Under the pieces are notes generated by a model. That model worked only from the letters and a program-made list of their open reading frames with translations, searched no databases and had not been told where the DNA came from. The position numbers and the translations under genes were made by a program. A DNA stretch of 64,000 nucleotides, from positions 81,548 to 145,547 of the forward strand of contig JAHQWW010000001.1 of assembly GCA_029856365.1 (NCBI GenBank), written 5' to 3'. Position 1 is the stretch's first letter. Each line of letters opens with the position of its first letter. Origin of the DNA: Candidatus Hodarchaeota archaeon. GTDB lineage: Archaea; Asgardarchaeota; Heimdallarchaeia; Hodarchaeales; Hodarchaeaceae. Positions 1,453-63,984 of this stretch are shown piece after piece.

Positions 1453-3615
1453 TCAGTTTGATCTCAGAGTTTTATCCCTTTGTTTTAATGTACCAAAAGT
1501 TTTATCAAGAAGAACATAAATTTCACTGAGGAGTTTTTTTTCTACTTTTTCTGATAAATATATGCTTTGGATGATTGCTAGGTCAAGAGCTTTTCTTTGG
1601 GGTAATTGTAATTGTTCGGGAATTGGGGGTAGGTTTAACTTTCTCATTGTATCAAATTCTTCAAATATTTGGTTTCTTTGTGATGTTAAAATCTTTGAAG
1701 CATCAAGAAATAAAGGTTCTTTCATGTAATCAATAATTTGAAGTCTTCCGTAAGAACCCCCAATTTCACGTCGACTTAATAGATAGAGAATAATAAAAAA
1801 AGTTGAATTCAACCATGCAGCAAGTAATTTTGCTTGATCAGGAGAGCTATTTCGGAGTACATAGAAATTTTTTGAACAGATTAATTTTGACTCAAAGAAA
1901 TGTCCCATAACACTTGTTGTAGAGATCCCAAATTTGTCAATGAAGAACATTTGTCCCCAGGGTTTTTTTGTTTTTATTTGGTTATGAATGTGAGATATCC
2001 ATTCTGATCCAAATTTCCGTTTGGCTGGTGAAGCAAAATGCTTTGAGGTACTTATATAATCTTCTAACCATTTTGGAAATTCTTTGCAGGAATCGGGGAT
2101 TGATAATGCAAAATCTGACACACCAGGTGATATACATCGGTTATATTTTCCCGCTTTTCTTAAAGATCGAACTAAGAATTCTTTTGGAATAGTAAGAGTT
2201 CTGTCTTTAGACCTTAAGATGATTTTTTCCTTTTCTTCTGAAATAATCCTCCAATTTTGATTTGGGATAAAAAAGAAGTTTGGACCATACATTTCAACTC
2301 CCCGAGTAATATCTAAGTTTAGATCTGATCCATTCTTAAGAAGACCTGACTGGAGAAAAATGTCACGGATTCTTAGAAGCTTAGGATCTTTCAGAAATAT
2401 TGTCCAATTCCATTCGTTGATAAGAATTTCCTCTGGAATCCTTAGAGCTGGGGAAATGTTCCATTGATTACTTTTATATGGCTCTGAAATGCGGATAAAT
2501 TTGACATCTTCCTCCTTCTTAGTTCTTTTACGTTTTGCAATTAGAAATATTTCTCGAAAGCTACTACCCTCAGAACAAGATTTTACATCCTCGGAAGCTG
2601 CAATAATTTCTAATTGATAATTATTAAGAAGTAATTTTTGGATACCACCAGAATATTGGGATAGAATAGTAGCAGCAGGCAGAACGGTTCCCAATACCCC
2701 ATTCTCTTTGATTAACATATCAGTTAATAGGATTGCATAAATGTGAAGTCCTACTTGCCCACTTAGATATTTTTTATATTTACGTTCAAGTTTTAATAAG
2801 CTTTTTCTCTGATCACTATTTATACGGTGTGTACGTGTAAAAGGGGGATTCATTAAAATTAAATCATAATTTTCAAGCTCTTTCGGTTGGCTATTGACAT
2901 CTGATGCAAAGACTGCAAATGTGTCACCAATAGATGCTTGTAATAAACCGTAATCTTGATTTTTTTCCGATAATATTAGTATAATCCGACAATAAGCAAT
3001 AAGAACTGCTGAAGCCATTAGATCATTGATTCTTATGCGTGGAAATCGTGTGTTTGGGGTTAAAATTCTCAGATACGCTGAAACTAACCTTCCTGAGCCA
3101 CAGAAAGGATCTATGATTGATGAAGGAGTGTTTGATTTCAGTAATTCAACAAGAATTCTTGCTGAACTCACCGTAGTATAATTTGCAGCTAGCTTCTTCC
3201 GTTCATCTGAGGATAACGAGTTTTGTAACATTGTCCCCAAAACATCATTAGAGAGAGCTTCGTGTAAATCTGGAAATTTTATTAGTAGAAGTGAATCCAA
3301 AATTAATTTTTCATTCAGGTTATTGAAAAGTTCATCAAGAAAAGTCCAGAGAGAATTTGATTGAGAAAATTTACTTTTTAGATCTTCTAGCTTTTTAAAA
3401 ATCTTGGCTGAAGATTTGAAAGCTTTTTTCTGATTTAAAAATTGTAATAACCATAATCCAGCTAGAAGTGATAATAAAAACTCGTTTTGATTATAGATCA
3501 TTACTGGTGGGTGGTTAAAATTAAAAATGGATTTACAATTTTCCATCCATTCAGAAATTTCAATTATACCCTCATTTTGTGATGTTAATGTTGATTTTCT
3601 TATAAGAGGTGTCAC
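1453..3615 (-). CDS. N6-adenine DNA methyltransferase, gamma-class (Eco57I/HsdM-like) with long C-terminal target-recognition region
   Basis: Motif I IIDPFCGSGRL, then motif IV LILMNPPFTR. An upstream YTT...ARILVELL segment resembles the YTP...iv motif. 720 aa. GTG start. Confidence 0.8.
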   Translation of the reverse strand: MTPLIRKSTLTSQNEGIIEISEWMENCKSIFNFNHPPVMIYNQNEFLLSLLAGLWLLQFLNQKKAFKSSAKIFKKLEDLKSKFSQSNSLWTFLDELFNNLNEKLILDSLLLIKFPDLHEALSNDVLGTMLQNSLSSDERKKLAANYTTVSSARILVELLKSNTPSSIIDPFCGSGRLVSAYLRILTPNTRFPRIRINDLMASAVLIAYCRIILILSEKNQDYGLLQASIGDTFAVFASDVNSQPKELENYDLILMNPPFTRTHRINSDQRKSLLKLERKYKKYLSGQVGLHIYAILLTDMLIKENGVLGTVLPAATILSQYSGGIQKLLLNNYQLEIIAASEDVKSCSEGSSFREIFLIAKRKRTKKEEDVKFIRISEPYKSNQWNISPALRIPEEILINEWNWTIFLKDPKLLRIRDIFLQSGLLKNGSDLNLDITRGVEMYGPNFFFIPNQNWRIISEEKEKIILRSKDRTLTIPKEFLVRSLRKAGKYNRCISPGVSDFALSIPDSCKEFPKWLEDYISTSKHFASPAKRKFGSEWISHIHNQIKTKKPWGQMFFIDKFGISTTSVMGHFFESKLICSKNFYVLRNSSPDQAKLLAAWLNSTFFIILYLLSRREIGGSYGRLQIIDYMKEPLFLDASKILTSQRNQIFEEFDTMRKLNLPPIPEQLQLPQRKALDLAIIQSIYLSEKVEKKLLSEIYVLLDKTFGTLKQRDKTLRSN

Positions 3616-3688: not shown

Positions 3689-5473
3689 TCAACACTTAAG
3701 TAAGCGAGAAATCAGTTCATTGATTTTGGAAATCTTAGAAATATCTTCAAGTTGTCTTTTTTGGATTTCTTGAACTAAAAACTTAATTCTATCATGAATT
3801 TGACGTTCACTTGATGAGTCCCAATTGATAAGACGAAATGGGATGTTCTTTAATGGTTCTTCAGAAAACTCTGCAACTCCACCACGAATGAGACCTTTAT
3901 TTATGATCCAATTAAATATTTCCTTGCTATTTAGAAAAGCAGTGATATATTCGGGTGATTCTTTAACCCAATCAAATTTCACTAAAACAGTAACATCCTG
4001 TGTGGTAAAAATTCCTTGGTCACAGAGAGCAAAGCGTACAAATCCTCGTTTATCAAACCGATCCTTACAAGGAACACAGATTAATGCTTCTGCAGTTTTC
4101 ATAAGATTATAGTTTCTAATGAATACCCATTCCCAATAAGGTATCTCTCTGTTGTATTGATAACGTCTTTCTAATGCATTTCGATAAGGCATAAGCTGTT
4201 CATACAAAGAGGGATATTCTTCTCTTAGGATATCTTCTGATGGAATATCTCCTGGTTTGACAAGAAAATAGTTGGTCAAAAATTCAACATAAAATCTACG
4301 TATAGCTTTTGCCTTAACTACAGGAATAACAAGATTGTTTTCATTTTTAGTAAGTGTTACATTTGGACCCAGTCGAAATGCTTTATCAAGACCACTAACC
4401 ATACCATTCCCTATCTCTACTATATCACCAACTCTCACAAAACGTGGTAGGGGAGAAGTTGGAGGTTTTAAATCCTTGGTTAAGTATTCGGTTAACTGTT
4501 TCATTCTAGGGACAATGAAATAAATTTTATTATCAAATTTCACTTTTTTACAAAAGATTACAGGATAATCTAACATTACAAGATCATCAGCAGAAAAGAG
4601 ATAAGATAAGCGAGTTGTTTCTCCATTAATTTCTAATTTTGGAGAAAATTGACAAGCTTGCTCAAGGCGTGTTAATTTTTCTTCTATATCACAAGGAAGG
4701 AACCACCATGGCATTGAGTTGTAAGGTTGATGGGTCTCAAAAAACTCTAGATTTCCATCTCTTTGAGAAAAAGTTTCCCAAGATGATGATTCTAGAAGAA
4801 GCCAACGGATACGTTCAAGGACATTTGGTTTCAATTTTCCTTTTTGCCAATAATTAATAACTTTCAAGGGTTGATTTTGCTTAGACTTAAGATATTTGAA
4901 AATAACGAGGTTGAGGCTTGCTTTTGGAAAAATTTGTATTTCATGAAAATTAAGAATCAATTCTAGAGAGCCATTTTCTAATAAAAATCGTCTTAATGGC
5001 TCTGCATGTAGCGTCTGCATCCAGAAAATAGGCGTGATAAAGATTAATTCTCCACCAGAGTTTAAATGATCCACACTTTTAAAGATAAAAGGTTGTAATA
5101 TGTCAGTTAAACCATTCATACGTTTTTGCCAGAATGATGCCGAGCTGAAATATTCTCGTTGGACTAGAGAGAGATTTTTCCACCGAATATACGGTGGGTT
5201 TCCAATTACAACCTCAAATTTCTCTGAGTTTGGAAAATCGAAAAAATTCTGGTTATATATTGGAATAGCAGATCGTTTTACTAGAGTTGGATCAATTTCT
5301 ATTCCAGTAAGATTTTGATATCCCATATTGGTTAATATTTTAAGAAATACGCCTTTACCAGCACTAGGTTCAAGAATTTTTCGTGTTTTGAGACCTTTGG
5401 AGATTAAATCAGCCATTAGTTGAGCAATATTAGCTGGTGTAAAATATTGACCCAAAGATTTTTCTTTTGACAC
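3689..5473 (-). CDS. N6-adenine DNA methyltransferase, gamma-class (TaqI/Eco57I-like)
   Basis: LGQYFTPANIAQLM, motif I EPSAGKGVFL, motif IV VIGNPPYIRW. Long C-terminal TRD-like region. GTG start preceded by GAGGT. Confidence 0.85.
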   Translation of the reverse strand: MSKEKSLGQYFTPANIAQLMADLISKGLKTRKILEPSAGKGVFLKILTNMGYQNLTGIEIDPTLVKRSAIPIYNQNFFDFPNSEKFEVVIGNPPYIRWKNLSLVQREYFSSASFWQKRMNGLTDILQPFIFKSVDHLNSGGELIFITPIFWMQTLHAEPLRRFLLENGSLELILNFHEIQIFPKASLNLVIFKYLKSKQNQPLKVINYWQKGKLKPNVLERIRWLLLESSSWETFSQRDGNLEFFETHQPYNSMPWWFLPCDIEEKLTRLEQACQFSPKLEINGETTRLSYLFSADDLVMLDYPVIFCKKVKFDNKIYFIVPRMKQLTEYLTKDLKPPTSPLPRFVRVGDIVEIGNGMVSGLDKAFRLGPNVTLTKNENNLVIPVVKAKAIRRFYVEFLTNYFLVKPGDIPSEDILREEYPSLYEQLMPYRNALERRYQYNREIPYWEWVFIRNYNLMKTAEALICVPCKDRFDKRGFVRFALCDQGIFTTQDVTVLVKFDWVKESPEYITAFLNSKEIFNWIINKGLIRGGVAEFSEEPLKNIPFRLINWDSSSERQIHDRIKFLVQEIQKRQLEDISKISKINELISRLLKC

Positions 5474-5497
5474 TACATAACCTCAGAGCATCAGCGT

Positions 5498-6670
5498 TTA
5501 TCTTCTGCTCTCATATTTTACCTTTGTTATTAAATTACATAGTTCAAACAAATCTGAGTTCAGTGGAATGGTCTTCTTTTGCGTTCCTTCTGCAAGCGGA
5601 ACTGTTTGAATATTCTCTCCACGAAGACAAACCATTAATCCATAACGTTCTTCTAGTACTAGTTGTGCCGCATGGATCCCTAATCGTAATCCAAGAATAC
5701 GATCAAAAGAGCTTGGTGTTCCTGCTCGTATAGTGTGACCAAGAACAACATCACGGACTTCAAATTCAGCGTTACATTCCTGGAAGATATCCTTTAAATC
5801 ATTTCTGAGGTTCAACTCTTCAACAATAACTTTAGATAGATTTAATTTCGAAAGTAATGGATTTCCAAATTCATCTTTCGGAAGTTTGTCAATTTTCACC
5901 TGGGATATTGTTTGAAAGTCTCGTTGTAACGATTCTACGGTAGGTACTGCTCCCTCACTGCAAGCGATAATATGATATTTACATCCCGCTTTAACTCGTT
6001 CTCTTAATACATTTACAATATCTTTATTAAAATCAAAAGGTCTTTCGGGGATTAAAATAATGTCCGCCCCAGTGGAAATTCCACTAACCAGCGTTAACCA
6101 CCCTGCATCACGACCCATAACCTGTACGACGAAAATTCGTTGGTGAGATCGCGCTGTTGTTGTTATGTTATCCATTGTGTTAGATGCTAACTGAATGGCA
6201 GACCAAAACCCAAAAGTATAATCTGTACTTGAAAGATCATTATCTATCGTCTTTGGAACACCTATTACTTTTGCTCCAGCATATTGATGCATTGCTGCTG
6301 CAACACCAAGAGTATCATCACCACCAATTGCAATCAATGCATCAATCCCCATAATATTAAATTGAGAAGCCATCTTTTTTGCCATTTCTTCGATCATTTT
6401 TTGTTTTTTAGCAGGATCTTTTATTTTTTTGGCATTTTTATAAGGATTAGTTCGTGATGTGTAGAGTATAGTACCTCCAATAGTGTGTAAATCGTCTAAT
6501 TTCGATATATCCAATTCTCTAGTAATGTTTTCTAGAAATCCTTTCCACCCCTTCTCGATACCAACAACTTTAGATCCAGCATCCATGGCTTTCAGAAGTA
6601 TTCCATATAACACACTATTTAAGCCTGGGCAATCTCCACCACCTGTTAAAACACCAATAGTTTTCTTCAT
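5498..6670 (-). CDS. pfk: 6-phosphofructokinase, PfkA family, with PPi-type specificity residues
   Basis: IGVLTGGGDCPGLN, IGGDDTLG, VPKTIDNDL and MGRDAGWL motifs. Confidence 0.9.
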   Translation of the reverse strand: MKKTIGVLTGGGDCPGLNSVLYGILLKAMDAGSKVVGIEKGWKGFLENITRELDISKLDDLHTIGGTILYTSRTNPYKNAKKIKDPAKKQKMIEEMAKKMASQFNIMGIDALIAIGGDDTLGVAAAMHQYAGAKVIGVPKTIDNDLSSTDYTFGFWSAIQLASNTMDNITTTARSHQRIFVVQVMGRDAGWLTLVSGISTGADIILIPERPFDFNKDIVNVLRERVKAGCKYHIIACSEGAVPTVESLQRDFQTISQVKIDKLPKDEFGNPLLSKLNLSKVIVEELNLRNDLKDIFQECNAEFEVRDVVLGHTIRAGTPSSFDRILGLRLGIHAAQLVLEERYGLMVCLRGENIQTVPLAEGTQKKTIPLNSDLFELCNLITKVKYESRR

Positions 6671-17700: not shown

Positions 17701-19044
17701 TCAACTACCAAATAATGCTAGTTCTAAAGCTTCCTTGACAGGTGTTCGTAATTGATAAAACACTTCCCGTCCAGTTTTTGAATAAGTAACAATTTTTTCT
17801 TTTACTAGAGTTTGACATTGATAGGTGAGAGAGGATTCTTTGATACCAGTTCGTTCTTGAAGTTCTGAACGTTTGATAATATTATTTTGTTGTGCTATAA
17901 GGAGTAATTCTTCAAGTAATGGTTTCCAAGATAATGTAACACCTTTTAATTGCTTGAGAGATTGCATCAATGGAGAATTCCTGTTTTCAAGTACAGATTG
18001 AAGAACTGGCCATACTTTATTACTAATTTCATGGTCGGTTTGATGCAATGAGTGGAAATCATGTTTGTATATAATTTTTAGTGCTGGACTAAATCCTAAA
18101 TATTGTGCAATACTGTGAATAAGTTCTGGGGTGACTTTTTGCCATGTTTCCTGATTTTCTAAGTTTGAAATTAAGTTCCTAACAAGCCATAGTGCTAATC
18201 CTGGTAATCCTAAGGAAAGCTCTCCAATTGCTTTCAATACTTCAGATGGTAATAGACTTGGTTTTCCTATGGATTCAGCTCTTCGTTTGATAATGTTTTC
18301 AATTTCAAGAGCAGAGGGCCGTTTAAAATGGAATTCAAATGGTTCTGTCTCAAAAATCTTAATTCTAGAGGTTTTTTGAGAAAGTCGTAGCCATTGATGT
18401 TCTATACAATTTAGAATAGTCACAATTAATATTTTATCATGGCTTGAGCGATTGATAAGATCTTCATAAGATTGACGTGTAAAATAGCTCCAAATTGGAT
18501 ATATGTTGTCGAAAAAAAAGATTTTAGTTGAATTAAAGTCAGCTTCTTCCCACCAACTCCAGAAATTGGAATCATAAGCTCTATATTGTGTATAATCTTT
18601 CCCCCTATGTTGATTAAGTTCTGTAGCTATTTGTCGAACTGTTGTAGTTTTTCCACTCCGTTGAGGCCCGACTATTATAATTTGTGGGCATATTTCTTCT
18701 TCTAAAGAAGAAGCTTTCAGGATTTGGCCTAGCCTTTCACTTAATCTTAGCCCCTCTTTCGTGAAAACGAACGAATCTGGAGACTTTAAAACGAAGTTGT
18801 CTTTGAAAGCGTTGGCTATAGAGCGTGTTTCTTTGAAATGCTGCTTCCAGTCTTTTGCTTGCGATTCACCTTTTTTAAAGGCGTCATAAATGGAAGGCAG
18901 GATTATATTTCTCCTTAAGTATGGCGATTTGTGAAATTTAAGTTCTTTGAGACAATAGTTGGAAAGAGAGCTTACATTAATCATGATACTTGAATCTTTT
19001 AAAATATTTGAAATTTGAAATATCCGACAATATTCCATATCCAC
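17701..19044 (-). CDS. P-loop ATPase (Arch_ATPase/AAA-like) with C-terminal winged-helix DNA-binding domain
   Basis: Walker A IIIVGPQRSGKTT and Walker B-like IFFFDN. C-terminal wHTH-like IIKRSELQERTGIKESSLTYQCQTLVKEKIV. GTG start (ATG two codons later). Confidence 0.6.
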   Translation of the reverse strand: MDMEYCRIFQISNILKDSSIMINVSSLSNYCLKELKFHKSPYLRRNIILPSIYDAFKKGESQAKDWKQHFKETRSIANAFKDNFVLKSPDSFVFTKEGLRLSERLGQILKASSLEEEICPQIIIVGPQRSGKTTTVRQIATELNQHRGKDYTQYRAYDSNFWSWWEEADFNSTKIFFFDNIYPIWSYFTRQSYEDLINRSSHDKILIVTILNCIEHQWLRLSQKTSRIKIFETEPFEFHFKRPSALEIENIIKRRAESIGKPSLLPSEVLKAIGELSLGLPGLALWLVRNLISNLENQETWQKVTPELIHSIAQYLGFSPALKIIYKHDFHSLHQTDHEISNKVWPVLQSVLENRNSPLMQSLKQLKGVTLSWKPLLEELLLIAQQNNIIKRSELQERTGIKESSLTYQCQTLVKEKIVTYSKTGREVFYQLRTPVKEALELALFGS

Positions 19045-33480: not shown

Positions 33481-33765
33481 TCATTGCCATATTCAACGAA
33501 TTGTTCTGAACAAAGTTATAGCTTTGTAGATGGCTTTTTACATTACTTTTCTTTTTTAATTTCAAGACAAGGAGCTTAGTTGAATATGTATTTAATGCGA
33601 TGTTTATTGATGCTGCTCGGACACGACTCTCATAAAAGGAGTGGTTACTAAAATCCATCAGATCTGTGTGCTGGAACAATCCTAGAACAAAGTATTACTG
33701 AATTATGACACCAATTCTAATACTAGTACTCTGTAGGATTCGAAAAAAAAAACTTGGGATTTACA

Positions 33766-34233
33766 ATGAAAGGTTTAACTCATGTTTTTTTCGGTGTGGG
33801 GTTTGTTAGTCTATTGCTAGGTATCTTCAGGATTCCAATCATTATGTGGGGAGTTGGTACATTTTTAATTGCACCATTTTTTTCTCGATTACCCGATCAG
33901 GATCAAAAAATCGCACGAATCACCTTCAATCAGATTGTACCTCACCGAGGAAAAGGGACACACAATCTTTTGTATGGGATACCTCTATTAGGGCTTATTC
34001 TAATTGTAAATTGGCCTATTATAGGCCATCTTCTGATATTGTTTGTTGGGTCAATTTTTGGGTCACTTTTTGCTCATGCATTCATCGATGCGTTTAATTA
34101 TGGCGGAGTATGGATTGGGATTTTTCGAGTGAAAGGATTTCTTGATTGGGATTCTTTCTGGGGAAATCTTGGTTTCAAAATAGGGGGGATCATATTAATT
34201 CTATTATCTTTACTCTGTTACATAGATATATGA
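33766..34233 (+). CDS. Membrane-bound metal-dependent hydrolase-like protein (DUF457/YdjM-like)
   Basis: N-terminal LTHVFFG, PHRGKGTHNLL, about four TM segments. Start set to ATG 33766. Confidence 0.5.
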   Translation: MKGLTHVFFGVGFVSLLLGIFRIPIIMWGVGTFLIAPFFSRLPDQDQKIARITFNQIVPHRGKGTHNLLYGIPLLGLILIVNWPIIGHLLILFVGSIFGSLFAHAFIDAFNYGGVWIGIFRVKGFLDWDSFWGNLGFKIGGIILILLSLLCYIDI

Positions 34234-58218: not shown

Positions 58219-59205
58219 TTGAAAATGCACTGTGATAGTAATTGTCGGCCCTGTGTGTTAGAGGGGGGTCCTAGTCGTGATCTTAACGATTCTTCTCATA
58301 TCTTTTATGCTTATTTTTGTCCAACTTGTCGCTCCGCATTCTTTTGTGAGATAGGAGTAGTACGACAGTTTTCATCCAATAAAACTAATTATTATTGTGT
58401 GGAATGCGGTAAAACCCTAGTTACAAAATCTCTTGAAGAAATTGCTTTAGAAAAAGCTCGCTTCTTAATGGATAACCAGAAACTTAGCAGAAGTGGAAAG
58501 TTTAGACCAACTCTTGTACAAAAGAAGGGGGGTAGATCTGTTGAGTCTCTTTCAATGTTATATGACACAAAAACAACCAGTGCTTTTCATCAGTCGTTGA
58601 TCACCGAAATGACTCGAATTTCGGGTTTATCACCTCAAGTTATTAGTAATTTCGCTCTAGATTTTGGTATAGGAGAAAATGTAATTTCAAGTCTTTCTAG
58701 CGATAATGAGGCAGATAATGAGGCGATATTATTAACCCTTGCAAGTGTCTCTCCGAAATTTATTGAGATTCTTCATTCCATTCTAATTGGTCATGATCCT
58801 GAAGGGTTAGCTTTACGTTTCTCGGTATTTACAAACAATATTGCTGATATTGTGTTTATCCAACCATCTCGATCTCTAGTAGAATCAGGCCCCTACGATT
58901 TAATAGCTTATGATGGACAGGGTATGCGAATTTGGGTGTTCTGTGTCCAAGGAACAGTTGATTCTAAAGATATCGAGAAAATTGTTGGACCATTATTGAA
59001 TCAAGAGTTATCAGAATTTAGTGGAGTATCAAAAATTTGTATTGTTGCTCAAGGTTTCTCATGGGTGGCTTTACAAATATTACGAAAATATCGGGGGGTT
59101 GTAGTTAGAGGAGATAGTGGAAGAAAATCGATACCATTTGAACTATGGCAAGAAAAGATTATTGAGGATCGTCCTGAAATCATATTTGAAAATATCCGAC
59201 TTTAA
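58219..59205 (+). CDS. Zn-ribbon protein with C-terminal Mrr-like (PD-(D/E)xK-fold-like) domain, first gene of the GTPase operon
   Basis: CPTCRS...CVECGK ribbon at the N-terminus. The C-terminal YDLIAYDGQGMRIWVFCVQG...KICIVAQGFSWVALQIL has the rhythm of restriction-endonuclease-like folds, but the canonical Lys is not evident. Start is TTG 58219 or ATG 58225. Confidence 0.5.
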   Translation: MKMHCDSNCRPCVLEGGPSRDLNDSSHIFYAYFCPTCRSAFFCEIGVVRQFSSNKTNYYCVECGKTLVTKSLEEIALEKARFLMDNQKLSRSGKFRPTLVQKKGGRSVESLSMLYDTKTTSAFHQSLITEMTRISGLSPQVISNFALDFGIGENVISSLSSDNEADNEAILLTLASVSPKFIEILHSILIGHDPEGLALRFSVFTNNIADIVFIQPSRSLVESGPYDLIAYDGQGMRIWVFCVQGTVDSKDIEKIVGPLLNQELSEFSGVSKICIVAQGFSWVALQILRKYRGVVVRGDSGRKSIPFELWQEKIIEDRPEIIFENIRL

Positions 59206-59222
59206 CATTTAAGGTGTTTTCA

Positions 59223-59783
59223 ATGAGTTCTTCCTCATCAGAGACATCATTCATGGACTATTTTAGAGTTATACTTCTTGGTAGTCCAAGGGTAGGGAAA
59301 ACTTCAATAATCCATTGGATTCTTAATCTTTCCCCTTTAGACGAATATCACCCCACAATAGGCATAAAATTCTATAATCTAGACACTAATCTTAATAATA
59401 ATCAGTATTTCCTCCAGTTTTGTGATGTTTCAGGTAATGAAGTCTTTTTTAGTCTTCCTCCCTCTTTTTTAAAGACTGCTACTGTTGTTGTTCTAGTTTT
59501 TGACTACAAAAGCAAAGATTCCCAACTCGAAATTCAAAATCTATACAGTAAAGTTTGTGAGTATCTTCCTTCTACAAAAATTTTAGTCATTGGAAACAAA
59601 TTCGAGAATGAAAAGCGAGATATCCCTAAGACATTAGCTTCATGGGCTAATACCAATGATATAGCTATAATTTCTCTGTCTATTCAGGAAAATATTGGAA
59701 AATCTCTTCTCTTGCAAAATATAATTGGAATTATCACCGATATTTCTGATAAACAACTCACAGAAGCAGTTGAAGTGGAGTAG
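59223..59783 (+). CDS. Ras/Rab-like small GTPase
   Basis: G1 GSPRVGKT, G2 PTIG, G3 DVSG(NE), G4 NKFE (Glu in place of Asp), G5-like SLS. ATG 59223 lies 7 nt after AAGGTG. Confidence 0.8.
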   Translation: MSSSSSETSFMDYFRVILLGSPRVGKTSIIHWILNLSPLDEYHPTIGIKFYNLDTNLNNNQYFLQFCDVSGNEVFFSLPPSFLKTATVVVLVFDYKSKDSQLEIQNLYSKVCEYLPSTKILVIGNKFENEKRDIPKTLASWANTNDIAIISLSIQENIGKSLLLQNIIGIITDISDKQLTEAVEVE

Positions 59784-59830
59784 GCTCCCCCATATTTTGA
59801 TCAACTAGATTTTAGTATATTAAACCTGAT

Positions 59831-60232
59831 CTATTTCCATTCATCATCAGTGTTTTGACATGATACCTGGACAATTTCGCATTTCCACCATTGTGATCTC
59901 TGTTGAAAAGCGCACATATCATCAGTAATCTGACACTTGTGGTCTTCCTTTAAGTAAAGGCAAAGACTTGTCATTAGCAAGCGGAGGTTCATTTTTTCTG
60001 GCTGTTTACCAGTTTGATAGCTCTGGTATAATTGATCTCGGATTTCTTGATAATTATGCACCTGAACAGTTGTTAAAATACTTCCAGTTTTGAATGTTAT
60101 TCCTCCTGTTAAAGTAGAATCATCGAATTCTAGAAACTGAAAGAGCTGACGTTGGAGTGAATCAAGCATTTCATCGTCTATGTCTCCCACACCCATCATA
60201 TTTAATAAATCACGCAATTTTTTCCGAAACAC
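59831..60232 (-). CDS. Hypothetical Cys-rich protein
   Basis: 133-aa open frame, convergent with the GTPase gene and divergent from the large helical gene. Five Cys in the last 50 aa. No family recognised. GTG start. Confidence 0.4.
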   Translation of the reverse strand: MFRKKLRDLLNMMGVGDIDDEMLDSLQRQLFQFLEFDDSTLTGGITFKTGSILTTVQVHNYQEIRDQLYQSYQTGKQPEKMNLRLLMTSLCLYLKEDHKCQITDDMCAFQQRSQWWKCEIVQVSCQNTDDEWK

Positions 60233-60435
60233 TTACACAACGCCTTCATAACAATTTTTAGTGCCATAACAAGTGGTCTTCATAGATTTAGATGCTTCAT
60301 TCCACATTTTTAGTTTAATTAAAGTTAAATTTATATTAGTATAATTTATGCACCCTTCATATTTTTATATAACTAAACATTTTGAATAGAGCGCGCTCAA
60401 GTAGAAATAACAATAACGTTGTGGAGAATCCTTCA

Positions 60436-63330
60436 ATGACTGATTACGATTTCAATCCCGTAGTTTGGGTTAGTCTAGCTTCCGTCTCAGGTTTGAGCTT
60501 GATCAGCCTTGGTAAACCAGGATTAAGAACCGACCTTGATGAGCAGGTATACACTGGCGGGTTAACTGCCGTCCAAGCGATGCTAGGCGGAGAGGTTGGG
60601 GGTGATACTGCTAGATTTGTGGGTGGAAGTCATAGTAACAGAACTGGTAGATTCCTTGTTAAAAATGAAACAGGGGAACTTGTTGGGCAATTCTTATTGA
60701 TTTCTCCCAATAATCTTACTGTAGCTCCAGATTTAGTTGAATATTATGAAGAACTTGTCACAATTTTTGCTGAGGATACAATTCAAACTGAAGTATATGA
60801 ACGTACACAAAGAGAATTCAGAGCATTGGGAGTTAATGATGTCTTAGATCTCTTTTTTGAGAGTATCAAGAAATCACGGAAGCGGAAATCAATCCCCATG
60901 GATAAGAATAATTTTATTTCAGCGCTCAGCCGAATTGCAGTCCAATCTATCAATGATTATGAGTACTCTGCAACTCTAGTTAAGATTTCAGAATATAAAG
61001 GCAAGTATCATGACCTTCATTCTAAAGTACAAAATGAAAGAAATGATCTTATAACGGAATTAGCTAAGGATATGTTAGAATTCCTGACTAGTGAATATCC
61101 TCATGCTTTAGTAACGTTCCCTAAAGTTGATTCATTACAAAAAGATTTCTTAAAATATGTACGATCCGAAATAGATAATATTTTGAAACAGAACAAGGTA
61201 GATGAAGCCCTTGAAGAAATAATTGAAGATTTTGAAAAAAATTATTTGAATAAAGTTCTAGCAGACTTCGCACTTCATGAGGTAACTAAAACAAACCTCT
61301 ATGCACGTCTTGAAGATGAAGTTTTCACGAAGTTTCAACGAGAATTCCCCCTTCTTTTTCTTGTAGATCCCCAGATCAACGGATTTCTAAGTGCTATAGA
61401 GAAGCTTACTGAAAAAATCAACGAAGAATATGATTTAGCTGGAACATTATCTCGAATTGGGCATGATATGTTAAGAGAATATGAAAAAGAGGAAATCCTT
61501 GCTATTCCTTTCATTCGACATTTTTGTGAGCAATTTTCAACCGGATTAACCTCTACAGCGTGGAAATATATGCAAATCGTCTTTAAATTAATTACACTGG
61601 AGTCAAAGATTGAAGTGACTGATGTTCTTCCAGCTTTAGAAGGTCAAATTCCTGACTCTCACTTTTCAACAGTTCAAAAGATGATAACTAAATATAAAAT
61701 CACAAAACTTGATCCCTTATCTTTTTCGGTAAAAAAAGCAACCGACATATTACCATTTTATAGAGCTTTGTTTTCTTCTTTAGGTTATGGGATTAATTCT
61801 TTAATATGTCAAGTTGCTCTTGGAGAGGAAAATCCAGATAATTATCTCAATCATACTATTAGGAATTTTCACAAATTTAGTACTCAAATTCTTCATATTT
61901 TTGCATTATTTTCAATCTATTCTTACCTAGAAAAAGTAGGTGAACGTTTAGACTTCAATTTAGTTTATCCAAAACCAGAAATATTTGGGAAAGATGTAGA
62001 TATTGCCACGATAAATGTACAATCTTTAATCGCGGCTTTTATCAAAGCTAATACTGAATATCTTCAGAAAGAACATCAATTGGTAAAACATCGTTTGGAA
62101 GAATTTCAAGAAGCCTTTGATAAACGAATAAAGGATATTAACAAATTCTTATCACGTAATCCTATTGATATCTCAAAAGGATATTCTCTGGATCTTAAAG
62201 AGATAAAATTATTTCATTTCTCGACCAAATCCGTTAGTAGTGTTGAATCAATTCTCGAAAAGGCTCAAGATGAATATAGGAAGATAATAGAGAGAATTGA
62301 ACCAGATTTGAATAAAGCAAAGGATGCTGCCCAGCAGTTTGTCGATGGCCAAATCACTGAAAAGAATCTTGATTTAGTTCTTAGAAAACGTGGTTTTCTT
62401 GAAAAAACTCGAGATAATTTTCAAAAATTCCTTCAGAAAATCCATGAATCAATAGATAAAAGCTATTCTGGACTTCCTGGAGATGTTGAGAAAAGTCTTA
62501 ACAAATTTGAAAAAGAATTTACCAAACAATTTTCTCAGGCTTGTCCTTTCCTGAATATTGACCAAAAAGCATTTATAAAAGGTGATCAACAGTTTCTACA
62601 GGATCCATCCTCCAAGATTAGCAGAATCCAAGATTCAATCAAACAGATAATTTCAAAAGAAGAAGTCATTTCTTGGGAAAACTTGGGAATGTATTATTTT
62701 AGTTCTAAAAATCGGTCGTTACCAACCAATCTTCAATTAGATGTTTCGAATTCCTTAGTTTATAAGAAGTCATACCCCTTTTTGAAAGAAGCAATGGAAG
62801 TCTTGAAATCCAATCCACGTCAGGATATTTATAGAAGTTATACAGAAGTTCTAGAAGGTTACACTAAAGCGATAGTTGCTCAACTTTTCCATGAAACAGG
62901 AAATATCATCGACAAAGAGTACCTGAAGACAGACCTTGACATATTTTTCATAGAAAGAGACAAAAAACCTATACCAACCATTGAAATGGGAGTTCTCACG
63001 AATACTGATGCCATGAACTCTCTACGAGGTATTTTAGGATCAAAAATTGCTGTTGAGTCAGAAGAACGGGAAGAGATCACTTTTTTCCATATTTCCGCAG
63101 TAATACCAGACTTTGGTTGTGATTATACGGAATTAAAGAATGTATGGAAAAAAAGAAAAAAGGAATGGACTCTACGTAAAGTGTTACTACTCTTAAGTTG
63201 GCGTTCTCTCCTAAATTCTAACACTTTTTACATGAATTTATTAAGATATTCAAGTGGGTTTTACTCAACTCGAGTTAAAGATTCATTAGAGGATATCTTA
63301 CAAGAAATCGAAAAAGCAATTGTCTCCTGA
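60436..63330 (+). CDS. Large (~965 aa) predominantly helical protein with longin-like N-terminal domain
   Basis: ATG 60436 lies 9 nt after GTGGAG. The N-terminal ~110 aa show strand-strand-helix-strand-strand-strand-helix order (VVWVSLAS, LSLISLG, YTGGLTAVQAMLGG, ARFVGG, GRFLVKN, LVGQFLLIS). The rest is helical with no enzymatic motif. Confidence 0.6.
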   Translation: MTDYDFNPVVWVSLASVSGLSLISLGKPGLRTDLDEQVYTGGLTAVQAMLGGEVGGDTARFVGGSHSNRTGRFLVKNETGELVGQFLLISPNNLTVAPDLVEYYEELVTIFAEDTIQTEVYERTQREFRALGVNDVLDLFFESIKKSRKRKSIPMDKNNFISALSRIAVQSINDYEYSATLVKISEYKGKYHDLHSKVQNERNDLITELAKDMLEFLTSEYPHALVTFPKVDSLQKDFLKYVRSEIDNILKQNKVDEALEEIIEDFEKNYLNKVLADFALHEVTKTNLYARLEDEVFTKFQREFPLLFLVDPQINGFLSAIEKLTEKINEEYDLAGTLSRIGHDMLREYEKEEILAIPFIRHFCEQFSTGLTSTAWKYMQIVFKLITLESKIEVTDVLPALEGQIPDSHFSTVQKMITKYKITKLDPLSFSVKKATDILPFYRALFSSLGYGINSLICQVALGEENPDNYLNHTIRNFHKFSTQILHIFALFSIYSYLEKVGERLDFNLVYPKPEIFGKDVDIATINVQSLIAAFIKANTEYLQKEHQLVKHRLEEFQEAFDKRIKDINKFLSRNPIDISKGYSLDLKEIKLFHFSTKSVSSVESILEKAQDEYRKIIERIEPDLNKAKDAAQQFVDGQITEKNLDLVLRKRGFLEKTRDNFQKFLQKIHESIDKSYSGLPGDVEKSLNKFEKEFTKQFSQACPFLNIDQKAFIKGDQQFLQDPSSKISRIQDSIKQIISKEEVISWENLGMYYFSSKNRSLPTNLQLDVSNSLVYKKSYPFLKEAMEVLKSNPRQDIYRSYTEVLEGYTKAIVAQLFHETGNIIDKEYLKTDLDIFFIERDKKPIPTIEMGVLTNTDAMNSLRGILGSKIAVESEEREEITFFHISAVIPDFGCDYTELKNVWKKRKKEWTLRKVLLLLSWRSLLNSNTFYMNLLRYSSGFYSTRVKDSLEDILQEIEKAIVS

Positions 63331-63354: not shown

Positions 63355-63984
63355 ATGGCTTTTCCTAATGAGCTATCTGAAGACACAAAAGTTTACTCAC
63401 CTCAAGAAGATACCTGGTTTCTCACAGATATTTTAGAATCTCAATTTATGCAACCGTTGAATCAGCTTCGTCCATTATTGGTGTGTGAGATAGGAGTGGG
63501 TAGTGGTTTTATTTCTATCTATTTAGCTAAGAAATTTCCTCAGAATCATTTCATAGGAACTGATCTTTCTCCCCATTCCGCTATTTACTGTTATAAGATC
63601 ATGTCTAAGCAACTTAAACACAATCAATTTGATGTAATGTCAATGAATCTTCTTCGTGGACTTAATCCATTAGCATTTCATCCTGATATTATATTTTTCA
63701 ATCCACCTTATGTAAGAACAAGTGAGGAAGAAATGAAGAAGGGATTCTTTGAAAGATCCTGGGCCGGTGGCCCTAGTGGGATAGTAGTAATTCAAGAGTT
63801 TCTTGAAGACCTATCAAGGTTCTCTTTCGGAAATGCATTCTTTCTTTCATCTATTCATAACAAAAACGAATTATTAGAGAAAGGCTTTCATGAGATTTTT
63901 GAGTTTCAAGTTATTGCCAAAAGAAAGATAGAGGATGAGAAACTCCTTTGTTATAAGGTTTGGCTTAAGAAAAACTCAAGATAA
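63355..63984 (+). CDS. HemK/Mtq2-like protein (glutamine-N5) methyltransferase
   Basis: VYSPQEDTWFL, EIGVGSGFISIYL (motif I), IFFNPPYV (NPPY), SWAGGPSG. The ~209 aa length is typical of the archaeal/eukaryotic Mtq2 type. Confidence 0.8.
   Translation: MAFPNELSEDTKVYSPQEDTWFLTDILESQFMQPLNQLRPLLVCEIGVGSGFISIYLAKKFPQNHFIGTDLSPHSAIYCYKIMSKQLKHNQFDVMSMNLLRGLNPLAFHPDIIFFNPPYVRTSEEEMKKGFFERSWAGGPSGIVVIQEFLEDLSRFSFGNAFFLSSIHNKNELLEKGFHEIFEFQVIAKRKIEDEKLLCYKVWLKKNSR

Follow-up and report, generated by a model that had tools for sequence, protein, structure and literature searches.

Small GTPases of Asgard Archaea and the Locus Under Study

For Asgard archaea, there is ample documentation of longin and roadblock domains and of pairs of a GTPase and an accessory protein (PMC10933270), and 932 representative small-GTPase structures have been counted (PMC12962969). 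The wiring of the expanded set of small GTPases in these archaea is central to ideas on the origin of eukaryotic cell organization. Here, we describe a gene cluster in a stretch of 64,000 nucleotides, hereafter called the window, from a Candidatus Hodarchaeota archaeon (assembly GCA_029856365.1, contig JAHQWW010000001.1, positions 81,548–145,547). In this cluster, a Ras/Rab-like GTPase is encoded between Zn328, a protein of 328 amino acids (aa) with a zinc module and a nuclease-type fold, and p133, a Cys-rich protein of 133 aa, followed by a large protein of 964 aa with a longin-like N-terminal domain. An earlier reading of the sequence alone, hereafter the original prediction, had taken these four genes as one unit of a GTPase, its regulator and its effector, for which no characterized prokaryotic equivalent was recognized. 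The latter statement overlooks MglA/MglB and the many Asgard pairs and fusions of a GTPase with a roadblock or longin domain (PMC10933270).

Like the Rab-, Rag-, and MglA-like GTPases of Asgard archaea (Tran et al., 2024; PMC10933270) and bacterial MglA/MglB, the GTPase of the window is encoded beside a probably co-transcribed partner that is not a GTPase, and, as in the Asgard systems with roadblock or longin domains, a longin-like protein is encoded nearby. In contrast to those pairs and to MglA/MglB, the partner combines a zinc ribbon with a nuclease fold, and the GTPase is degenerate in its G3, G4, and G5 motifs. Furthermore, unlike in the Asgard GTPase-longin pairs, the longin-like protein is 964 aa long, belongs to a separate transcription unit and tracks a methyltransferase. 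In the literature searched, such a zinc-ribbon/nuclease-fold partner, the degenerate GTPase, and the tie of the large-protein family to a methyltransferase appear to be undescribed.

We consider it fairly likely that the cluster consists of two adjacent gene sets with different evolutionary histories, each representing a partnership of its own, i.e., that of Zn328 with the GTPase and that of the large protein with the methyltransferase encoded downstream of it, including p133 where present. The two sets are probably functionally separate. The first would be a bicistronic operon of the Zn328 gene followed by the GTPase gene, restricted to Hodarchaeales, and Zn328 would most likely be the direct binding partner of the GTPase. 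In the second set, which would be older and occurs in several Asgard lineages, the p133 gene and the large gene are divergently oriented, and the gene for an Mtq2/HemK2-like methyltransferase follows the large gene. The large protein would most likely act as a scaffold or adaptor for this methyltransferase, together with p133 where present, with its longin-like N-terminal domain, which is nearly invariant, as the platform for the interaction. A role as a guanine-nucleotide exchange factor (GEF) or GTPase-activating protein (GAP) for the neighboring GTPase is improbable. Cultured strains of Hodarchaeales are said to have been reported in a bioRxiv preprint of 2025 (10.1101/2025.02.26.640444), which would make both partnerships open to experiment.

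Conservation of the Cluster in Close and Distant Relatives

All four open reading frames (ORFs) are real genes under selection, since dozens of orthologues were found for each of them. The close homologues of the cluster proteins all came from Hodarchaeales/Heimdallarchaeia metagenome-assembled genomes (MAGs). The order Zn328–GTPase–p133–large protein was found in all 17 loci of GTDB species with spanning contigs and in further loci from metagenomes. This conservation was rejected as evidence for a module, because a block of ~13 flanking housekeeping genes, from RidA or, in most genomes, from TatD to gyrase B, is equally collinear. The block includes the RidA and PCC genes upstream of the cluster and, downstream of the large gene, the methyltransferase gene, two unknown genes, a ribbon-helix-helix gene, a gene for another protein of 133 aa, a metallophosphatase gene, and the gyrase B gene. 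Synteny inside Hodarchaeales is therefore uninformative.

Distant relatives of the large protein are more telling. An exhaustive hmmsearch of 1.84e9 representative proteins with a profile of the large protein retrieved relatives of ~970 aa from other Asgard MAGs (E 1e-93 to 1e-50), which are 23–31% identical to the window protein, and the neighborhoods of their genes were checked with profile hidden Markov models. A scan of metagenomes mostly added more Hodarchaeales orthologues and only one new distant locus, L037; another locus, L041, is truncated and uninformative. The methyltransferase gene lies directly downstream of the large gene and shares its strand in every Hodarchaeales locus and equally in all six loci of the distant subfamily for which downstream sequence is available (L023, L024, L025, L026, L028, and L029), and the other flanking genes of these six loci all differ. 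The NPPY motif is present in the methyltransferase of the window and in all six distant partners. In L025, L029, and L037, a p133 homologue is encoded on the opposite strand upstream of the large gene. A homologue of Zn328 or an orthologue of the degenerate GTPase was found in none of nine distant loci. Thus, the gene order, which the original prediction had proposed to check in related genomes, is conserved in Hodarchaeales, but the GTPase and Zn328 genes are absent beside the distant homologues of the large gene. Dandekar and colleagues reportedly found in 1998 that proteins usually interact if their genes have stayed next to each other over deep divergences of prokaryotes.

Small GTPases of another kind were found within 8 kb of the large gene in only two distant loci, L028 and L029. 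They are canonical, with DLSGQ and NKxD motifs, and are not orthologues of the GTPase of the window. Their presence at 2–4 kb from the large gene in two of the nine loci seems coincidental, as an Asgard genome encodes ~70 small GTPases (PMC10933270). In L028, the gene of the canonical Rab-like GTPase overlaps with the beginning of an ORF of 137 aa (together 5031–6006, minus strand) with a roadblock-like pattern and no Pfam match. This looks like an ordinary Asgard GTPase-roadblock pairing and contrasts with the pair in the window.

One could still regard the four genes as a single GTPase module, in which the N-terminus of the large protein would be a GEF/GAP platform, with Zn328 and p133 as effectors or accessories, but this appears unlikely. 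The genes are adjacent in every spanning locus of Hodarchaeales, but this adjacency is no more conserved than that of the surrounding housekeeping genes, and the distant homologues, which share the N-terminal domain, never have this GTPase or Zn328 beside them; their constant neighbor is the methyltransferase. Moreover, as predicted from sequence, the genes fall into three transcription units whose promoter-like regions are separate. The longin-like topology and the best domain-sized Foldseek matches, i.e., archaeal longin and roadblock proteins, would suit a module of this kind, since such domains are known GTPase platforms to which 26 of the 74 GTPases of one Asgard genome are fused (PMC10933270); the longin similarity is, however, statistically non-significant and absent at the sequence and profile levels. 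Likewise, a GTPase lacking the catalytic Gln would plausibly need catalysis from a partner, but this GTPase evolves far faster than the nearly invariant putative platform (37–40% vs. 73–78% identity at the deepest split within Hodarchaeales) and loses residues of switch II in one clade, which would not be expected if a platform and a switch region formed a conserved interface. Thus, the four-gene unit of the original prediction is weakened, not strengthened, by the evidence, and a longin-like fold beside an Asgard GTPase gene is insufficient evidence for a trafficking-type regulator.

At the other extreme, all these genes could be unrelated neighbors frozen in place, with the adjacency of the large gene and the methyltransferase gene as a relic. 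The collinearity of the block described above does imply that the whole region rearranges slowly in Hodarchaeales, but the pair of large protein and methyltransferase survives at 23–31% identity, where all other neighbors differ. Also, the junction between the Zn328 and GTPase genes contains an internal ribosome-binding site that is conserved, and it leaves no space for a promoter. Zn328, the orthologue of the GTPase, and close p133 are all confined to one narrow group, i.e., Hodarchaeales. Mere neighborhood is, therefore, quite unlikely as an explanation.

Several points weigh against the division into two partnerships. The p133 gene adjoins the large gene in only three of eight distant loci. 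As the distant MAGs carry unreliable taxonomic labels, the count of independent lineages is uncertain. The score of the window methyltransferase is just under the NCBIfam cut-off for HemK2/MTQ2 (85.8 vs. 87 bits). Furthermore, it is possible that the GTPase was recruited to the longin-like platform of the large protein within Hodarchaeales, and that Zn328 has a non-canonical nuclease site using the invariant residues D227, Q286, K290, Y291, and E312.

Zn328 and Its Pairing With the GTPase

Between the stop codon of the Zn328 gene (59205) and the start of the GTPase gene, there are 8 nt if GTG (59214) is the start codon or 17 nt if it is ATG (59223). Orthologous loci repeat this junction, which consists of the stop codon, 4–12 nt, a GGTG-type motif, 5–8 nt, and a start codon. 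Because this conserved ribosome-binding junction leaves no room for a promoter, the two genes almost certainly form one bicistronic operon, as had been proposed from their spacing. In each of the Hodarchaeales genomes examined, the pair is single-copy and occupies a fixed spot flanked by housekeeping genes. In three loci, an additional ORF of 109–143 aa is found between the PCC and Zn328 genes (L001, 5370–5699; L003, 5287–5718; and L013), whereas the window has only a spacer of 233 nt there.

The search for Zn328 homologues retrieved 64 proteins, all from Hodarchaeales-type MAGs and all with E ≤ 5e-72. As no weaker homologue was found, the family boundary is sharp. Zn328 had no family match in Pfam, NCBIfam, PDB sequences, or PADLOC, and no characterized family was found for p133 and the large protein either in the Pfam, NCBIfam, and PDB-sequence searches, in agreement with the original prediction. 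Three regions can be distinguished in Zn328, i.e., a double zinc-binding region (residues 1–71), a helical, helix-turn-helix-like linker (~118–207), and a domain with the PD-(D/E)xK (restriction-endonuclease) fold (~208–328). The AlphaFold2 model, with a mean predicted local distance difference test (pLDDT) score of 71 and of 85–93 in the C-terminal domain, contains β-hairpins at 30–71, six helices at 122–207, and an α/β domain at 213–326. Eight Cys residues are invariant (C5, C9, C12, C34, C37, C43, C60, and C63), which suggests two zinc sites. The invariant pairs C34-x2-C37 and C60-x2-C63 are located on the predicted strands in the segment 30–71, as in a zinc ribbon, and Pfam Zn_ribbon_8 gave a sub-threshold match of 13 bits. 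Thus, the N-terminal ribbon that had been predicted is real, but the protein has more invariant Cys residues than the four supposed.

Like NucS/EndoMS, the Mrr-type enzymes LlaBIII and MspJI, and Card1, Zn328 belongs to the PD-(D/E)xK fold class. In a Foldseek search of the PDB, most of the top matches have this fold. NucS/EndoMS leads with a probability of 1.0, 84–100 aligned residues, and a root-mean-square deviation (rmsd) of 3.3–3.9 Å (E 5e-3 to 2e-2), and further matches include Card1, the Cas4-like ACE1, LlaBIII, EcoO109I, SfsA, MspJI, AF1548, and VRR_NUC. No match to the PDB reached E ≤ 1e-3. The nuclease-type fold expected for the C-terminus is thus borne out at the level of fold class. 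As in PD-(D/E)xK nucleases, an Asp residue is conserved at the start of strand β-2 (D227, invariant), and Q286, K290, Y291, and E312 are invariant as well. In contrast to these nucleases, Zn328 has no sequence-level family and no conserved (D/E)xK motif on strand β-3 (R237 to V247), where positions 237 and 244 are variable and position 244 (in C242-V-Q244) is Q, R, E, L, K, P, or S among the homologues. Zn328 further differs from NucS/EndoMS, the Mrr-type enzymes, and Card1 in its double zinc module at the N-terminus and in being paired with a small GTPase. As the nuclease-fold domain lacks the canonical catalytic triad, binding of nucleic acid or protein, without cleavage, is the most likely role of Zn328.

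Alternatively, Zn328 might be an active nuclease under control of the GTPase, in a domesticated system of defense-like or mobile-element origin that loosely resembles NTPase-coupled restriction systems. The matches of its C-terminal domain to nucleases of the PD-(D/E)xK fold, among them restriction enzymes and Card1, and the invariant residues just listed could be explained in this way, but then the absence of the motif on strand β-3 and the variation at position 244 would be odd. The window carries several methyltransferase genes of the restriction-modification type, but these are >28 kb away, and the pair has a fixed position among housekeeping genes, unlike genes in defense islands. As, in addition, the PADLOC models gave no match for Zn328, the GTPase, or p133, the defense-system reading was rejected, and a GTPase-controlled nuclease is highly improbable. 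The lineage-specific, degenerate GTPase that is paired with Zn328 is a candidate for an archaeal pseudo-GTPase or a non-canonical switch.

An Atypical Small GTPase

By its sequence, the GTPase is a genuine Ras-superfamily protein, and its description as Ras/Rab-like in the original prediction holds. It matches Pfam Ras (4.3e-21; 75.6 bits, cut-off 21.6) and Roc (1.5e-18; 67.6 bits, cut-off 27), and, among PDB sequences, it comes closest to Rab6, Rab18, Rab7, and Rab21 (~1e-12). Its motifs were compared with those of 16 orthologues from related loci and of an HRas reference sequence. The P-loop is intact (GSPRVGKTS), with GK[T]S in all 16 orthologues, and the Thr residue of switch I is kept within PT(I/L)G and replaced by Ser in two orthologues. 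The G3 motif is DVSGN, i.e., Asn is located at the position of Gln61 in Ras, as it is in most orthologues. The G4 motif is NKFE, with Glu at the position of Asp119 in Ras, and G5 is SIQ. In the alignment to Rab6, cdvsgne stands against wdtagqe and gnkfe against gnktd. Among the orthologues, most have NKxE in G4, others NRSK, NKSK, NGSK, or NNAK, and only the one in L004 has NRFD. Members of one clade (L015–L021) have DISNS in G3, a deletion of two residues in switch II in which the Gly is gone, and N(R/K/G)SK in G4. A C-terminal Cys residue, as in the Rab prenylation motif, is absent from the window GTPase and its orthologues.

The GTPase gene is the fastest-evolving gene of the cluster, with only 11% invariant columns in the alignment, and the variation is greatest in switch II. 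Since the catalytic Gln and the Asp for guanine specificity are lost, the protein is probably a slow or non-cycling nucleotide-binding subunit, not a classical fast switch. Catalysis has presumably been lost, and in the clade with the shortened switch II the protein is possibly a pseudo-GTPase.

The Large Protein

Longin domains consist of the secondary-structure elements β-β-α-β-β-β-α-α and, unlike roadblock domains, they have no N-terminal helix (PMC10933270). In DENN, Mon1-Ccz1, FLCN-FNIP, C9orf72-SMCR8, and SRX of SR-alpha, a longin-type domain with such a helix-less start heads a mostly helical protein, and the large protein of the window has the same general layout. It contains a longin-like α/β domain (residues 1–117, positions 60436–60786 of the window), a helical part (~118–830), a second α/β domain (837–906), and a helical tail. 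The AlphaFold2 model (pLDDT 85.4) shows strands at residues 9–15 and 21–25, a helix at 32–50, strands at 69–76 and 81–89, a single bridge residue (96) as fifth strand, and helices at 98–116 and 119–127, and residues 50–63 are of low confidence. Hence, the order strand-strand-helix-strand-strand-(strand)-helix that had been read from the sequence is found in the model as well. With no N-terminal helix and two C-terminal helices, the domain fits the longin topology.

Beyond topology, the longin assignment of the N-terminus has weak backing from structural matches that are not significant. In a Foldseek search with the whole protein, nothing was found at E ≤ 1e-3. The longin domain 8yqg_A of a Lokiarchaeota protein was matched with E 0.9, a probability of 0.60, and a target-normalized template modeling score (TMt) of 0.44, the roadblock proteins p14/MP1 (1veu/1sko) with TMt 0.41–0.46, and PAS domains were close behind. 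The top matches, SMC, JetC, and MukB, were discarded as meaningless alignments of long helices (rmsd 75–120 Å). Among 14 diverse N-terminal domains, none matched Pfam Longin at E ≤ 10, and a profile search of PDB sequences with the same 14 domains gave no match. In hhalign, a longin profile of three sequences was matched with a probability of 0.07%, a test without power, as the roadblock-versus-longin control was also negative; the small longin and roadblock profiles included eukaryotic reference sequences that were validated by Pfam. As to a roadblock fold, there is no N-terminal helix in the model, no Robl_LC7 match to the N-terminus was found, and hhalign, again without power, was negative. 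Thus, the longin label stands for the topology and for weak Foldseek matches, but not for a sequence or profile link. The whole protein likewise has no match in Pfam, NCBIfam, or PDB sequences, and against PADLOC only a sub-threshold, helical match to ZorA was found (E 0.004).

The search for close homologues of the large protein retrieved 48 sequences. The N-terminal domain is clearly the functional core of the protein, because 44% of its alignment columns are invariant vs. 3–15% in the rest of the protein. Within this domain, the loop of residues 50–72 (window 60583–60651) is modeled with the lowest confidence and yet is the most invariant stretch (GGEVGGDxxRFVGGSHSNxTGRF), which suggests that it is a ligand- or partner-binding loop that is ordered only in a complex. 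This invariant Gly-rich loop (GGxVGGDxxRFVGGSxSNxTGRF in its general form), located in the region of the central helix, is unique to the large protein and sets it apart from the eukaryotic longin regulators. Also unlike the latter, the large protein has no significant structural or sequence match, no recognizable DENN or further longin modules, and no linkage to a GTPase outside Hodarchaeales. The second α/β module (window ~62944–63153), which was missed in the original prediction, is modeled with pLDDT >90 and has the order β-β-α-β-β-α (strands 837–841 and 844–854, helix 857–870, strands 871–878 and 881–889, and helix 897–906).

A paralogous subfamily of the large protein, represented by L027 (P0173), P0176, P0177, and P0187, is characterized by the N-terminal sequence AWFSLALEYGL..GKAG..ADEQLLTGG and has no downstream methyltransferase gene. 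One MAG (locus-tag prefix ACXAC7) contains both subfamilies. In two distant loci, a gene for a membrane protein of the YdjM family is located directly 5′ of the large-protein gene (L029, 6823–7668; L031, 6426–7811). In the window, a YdjM gene is found at 33754–34233, 26 kb away.

The Methyltransferase and p133

Like the Mtq2(HemK2/N6AMT1)-Trm112 system (PMC3152332, PMC7708063), the second gene set comprises a methyltransferase with an NPPY motif and conserved non-catalytic neighbors, of which p133 is small and Cys-rich. In contrast to that system, p133 has no Trm112 match in Pfam, and a partner of Mtq2 of 964 aa was not found in a literature search. The methyltransferase matches TIGR00537 (HemK2/MTQ2) with the above-mentioned, sub-threshold score, PRK14968 below the cut-off (6.5e-28), and the Pfam family MTS. 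In the uncharacterized ~970-aa family, a nearly invariant longin-like domain is genomically tied to a release-factor-type methyltransferase, not to a GTPase.

Among the small proteins of the cluster, p133 is conserved best (48 of 133 alignment columns are invariant), and its gene is, as had been noted, convergent with that of the GTPase. Five of its Cys residues are invariant, i.e., C91 and the cluster C100-x6-C107-x10-C118-x6-C125. We rejected p133 as an analogue of Trm112 for the Mtq2-like enzyme, as it lacks the corresponding Pfam match, and its Cys pattern (Cx6Cx10Cx6C) is presumably unlike that of Trm112. A roadblock protein was rejected as well, in view of the absence of a Pfam Robl_LC7 match; hhalign was negative here, too, but had no power. 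No other Pfam family matched p133, and a word-based search gave matches from Hodarchaeales only. The distant homologues in L025, L029, and L037 have E-values of 1e-23 to 1e-27. The acidic tail of the protein ends with Trp-Lys. Among the homologues, the C-terminus (window 59831–59845) is always acidic and then ends with an aromatic residue and Lys (EEWK, EPWK, or EEYK), even in those that lack the last Cys. The tail may be a short linear docking motif.

The two partnerships could also be parts of a larger scheme. In such a scheme, the ~970-aa family would be an Asgard-wide longin-type platform that acts with p133 to link a glutamine methyltransferase of the Mtq2/HemK2 type to a GTPase-bound substrate. 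This substrate could be a translational GTPase complex and, in Hodarchaeales, also the atypical GTPase with Zn328. We regard this scheme as very unlikely. If true, the family would be a prokaryotic forerunner of the eukaryotic longin-domain GTPase regulators, acting in translation or protein modification and not in membrane traffic.

As a separate observation, a gene for a DRG/Obg-type GTPase (MMR_HSR1 and TGS domains) is found near the Mtq2-like methyltransferase gene in L024 (9955–11004), L025 (11766–12941), and L028 (12178–13350). It adjoins the methyltransferase gene in the first two loci and is located one small gene beyond it in L028, which hints at a translation-related neighborhood.

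Gene Layout and Other Features

The features of the cluster are listed in Table 1. All four ORFs are present where the original prediction placed them. In the ORF listing, the large ORF spans 60382–63330 (982 aa, with a TTG start), but its orthologues are 955–969 aa long and their alignment begins at an ATG codon that is preceded, at 9 nt, by a GGAG motif (60423–60426). The resulting length of 964 aa agrees with the ~965 aa proposed. The gene 5′ of the cluster encodes an archaea-specific SMC-related protein (NCBIfam, 7.5e-107). In the cluster region, no tRNA genes or Rfam elements were found.

Table 1. Positions of the genes and other features of the cluster in the window, and of distant p133 homologues in their own loci.
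Feature	Position	Strand	Basis or remark
Zn328 gene (328 aa)	58219–59205	+	ORF listing
Shine-Dalgarno-like AAGGTG	59211–59216	+	between Zn328 stop codon and GTPase ATG; marks the bicistronic junction
Gene for atypical Ras/Rab-like small GTPase (186 aa from ATG)	59223–59783	+	Pfam Ras; alternative GTG start at 59214
p133 gene (133 aa, Cys-rich)	59831–60232	−	convergent with GTPase gene, divergent from large gene
Putative divergent promoter region and 5′ leader of the large gene	60324–60435		conserved AT-rich blocks, from which the promoter role is predicted
Gene for large protein (964 aa from ATG)	60436–63330	+	orthologue alignment
Gene for HemK2/Mtq2-like class I methyltransferase	63355–63984	+	NPPY motif; starts 24 nt after the large gene
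Distant p133 homologues	L025, 6912–7340; L029, 6374–6781; L037, 314–721	opposite to large gene	E 1e-23 to 1e-27

Upstream of the large gene, conserved AT-rich, TATA-like blocks are found at ~60324–60374, which point to a promoter region of its own. An alignment of 18 orthologous intergenic regions revealed the conserved sequence ..CCTTTATAATTGTATATAAT..AAACGCTTTGAATAGAGCGCG. Just 3′ of the TATA-like block, in the leader of the large gene, a perfect GC-rich palindrome, GAGCGCGCTC, is located at 60389–60398 (within 60379–60408). It could be an operator or a hairpin of the 5′ untranslated region. The motif TTTGAATAGAGCGCG of the leader is conserved in L004, L005, L007, L017, and L020.

Elsewhere in the window, restriction-modification and defense-like genes are unusually concentrated in the first half. 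DNA methyltransferase domains of the N6_Mtase, Eco57I, MmeI, or TaqI_C type are encoded at 1453–3615 (−), 3689–5473 (−), 23459–25597 (+), and 27981–29681 (−), and a gene at 17701–19044 (−) gives a match to an nSTAND3-like NTPase.

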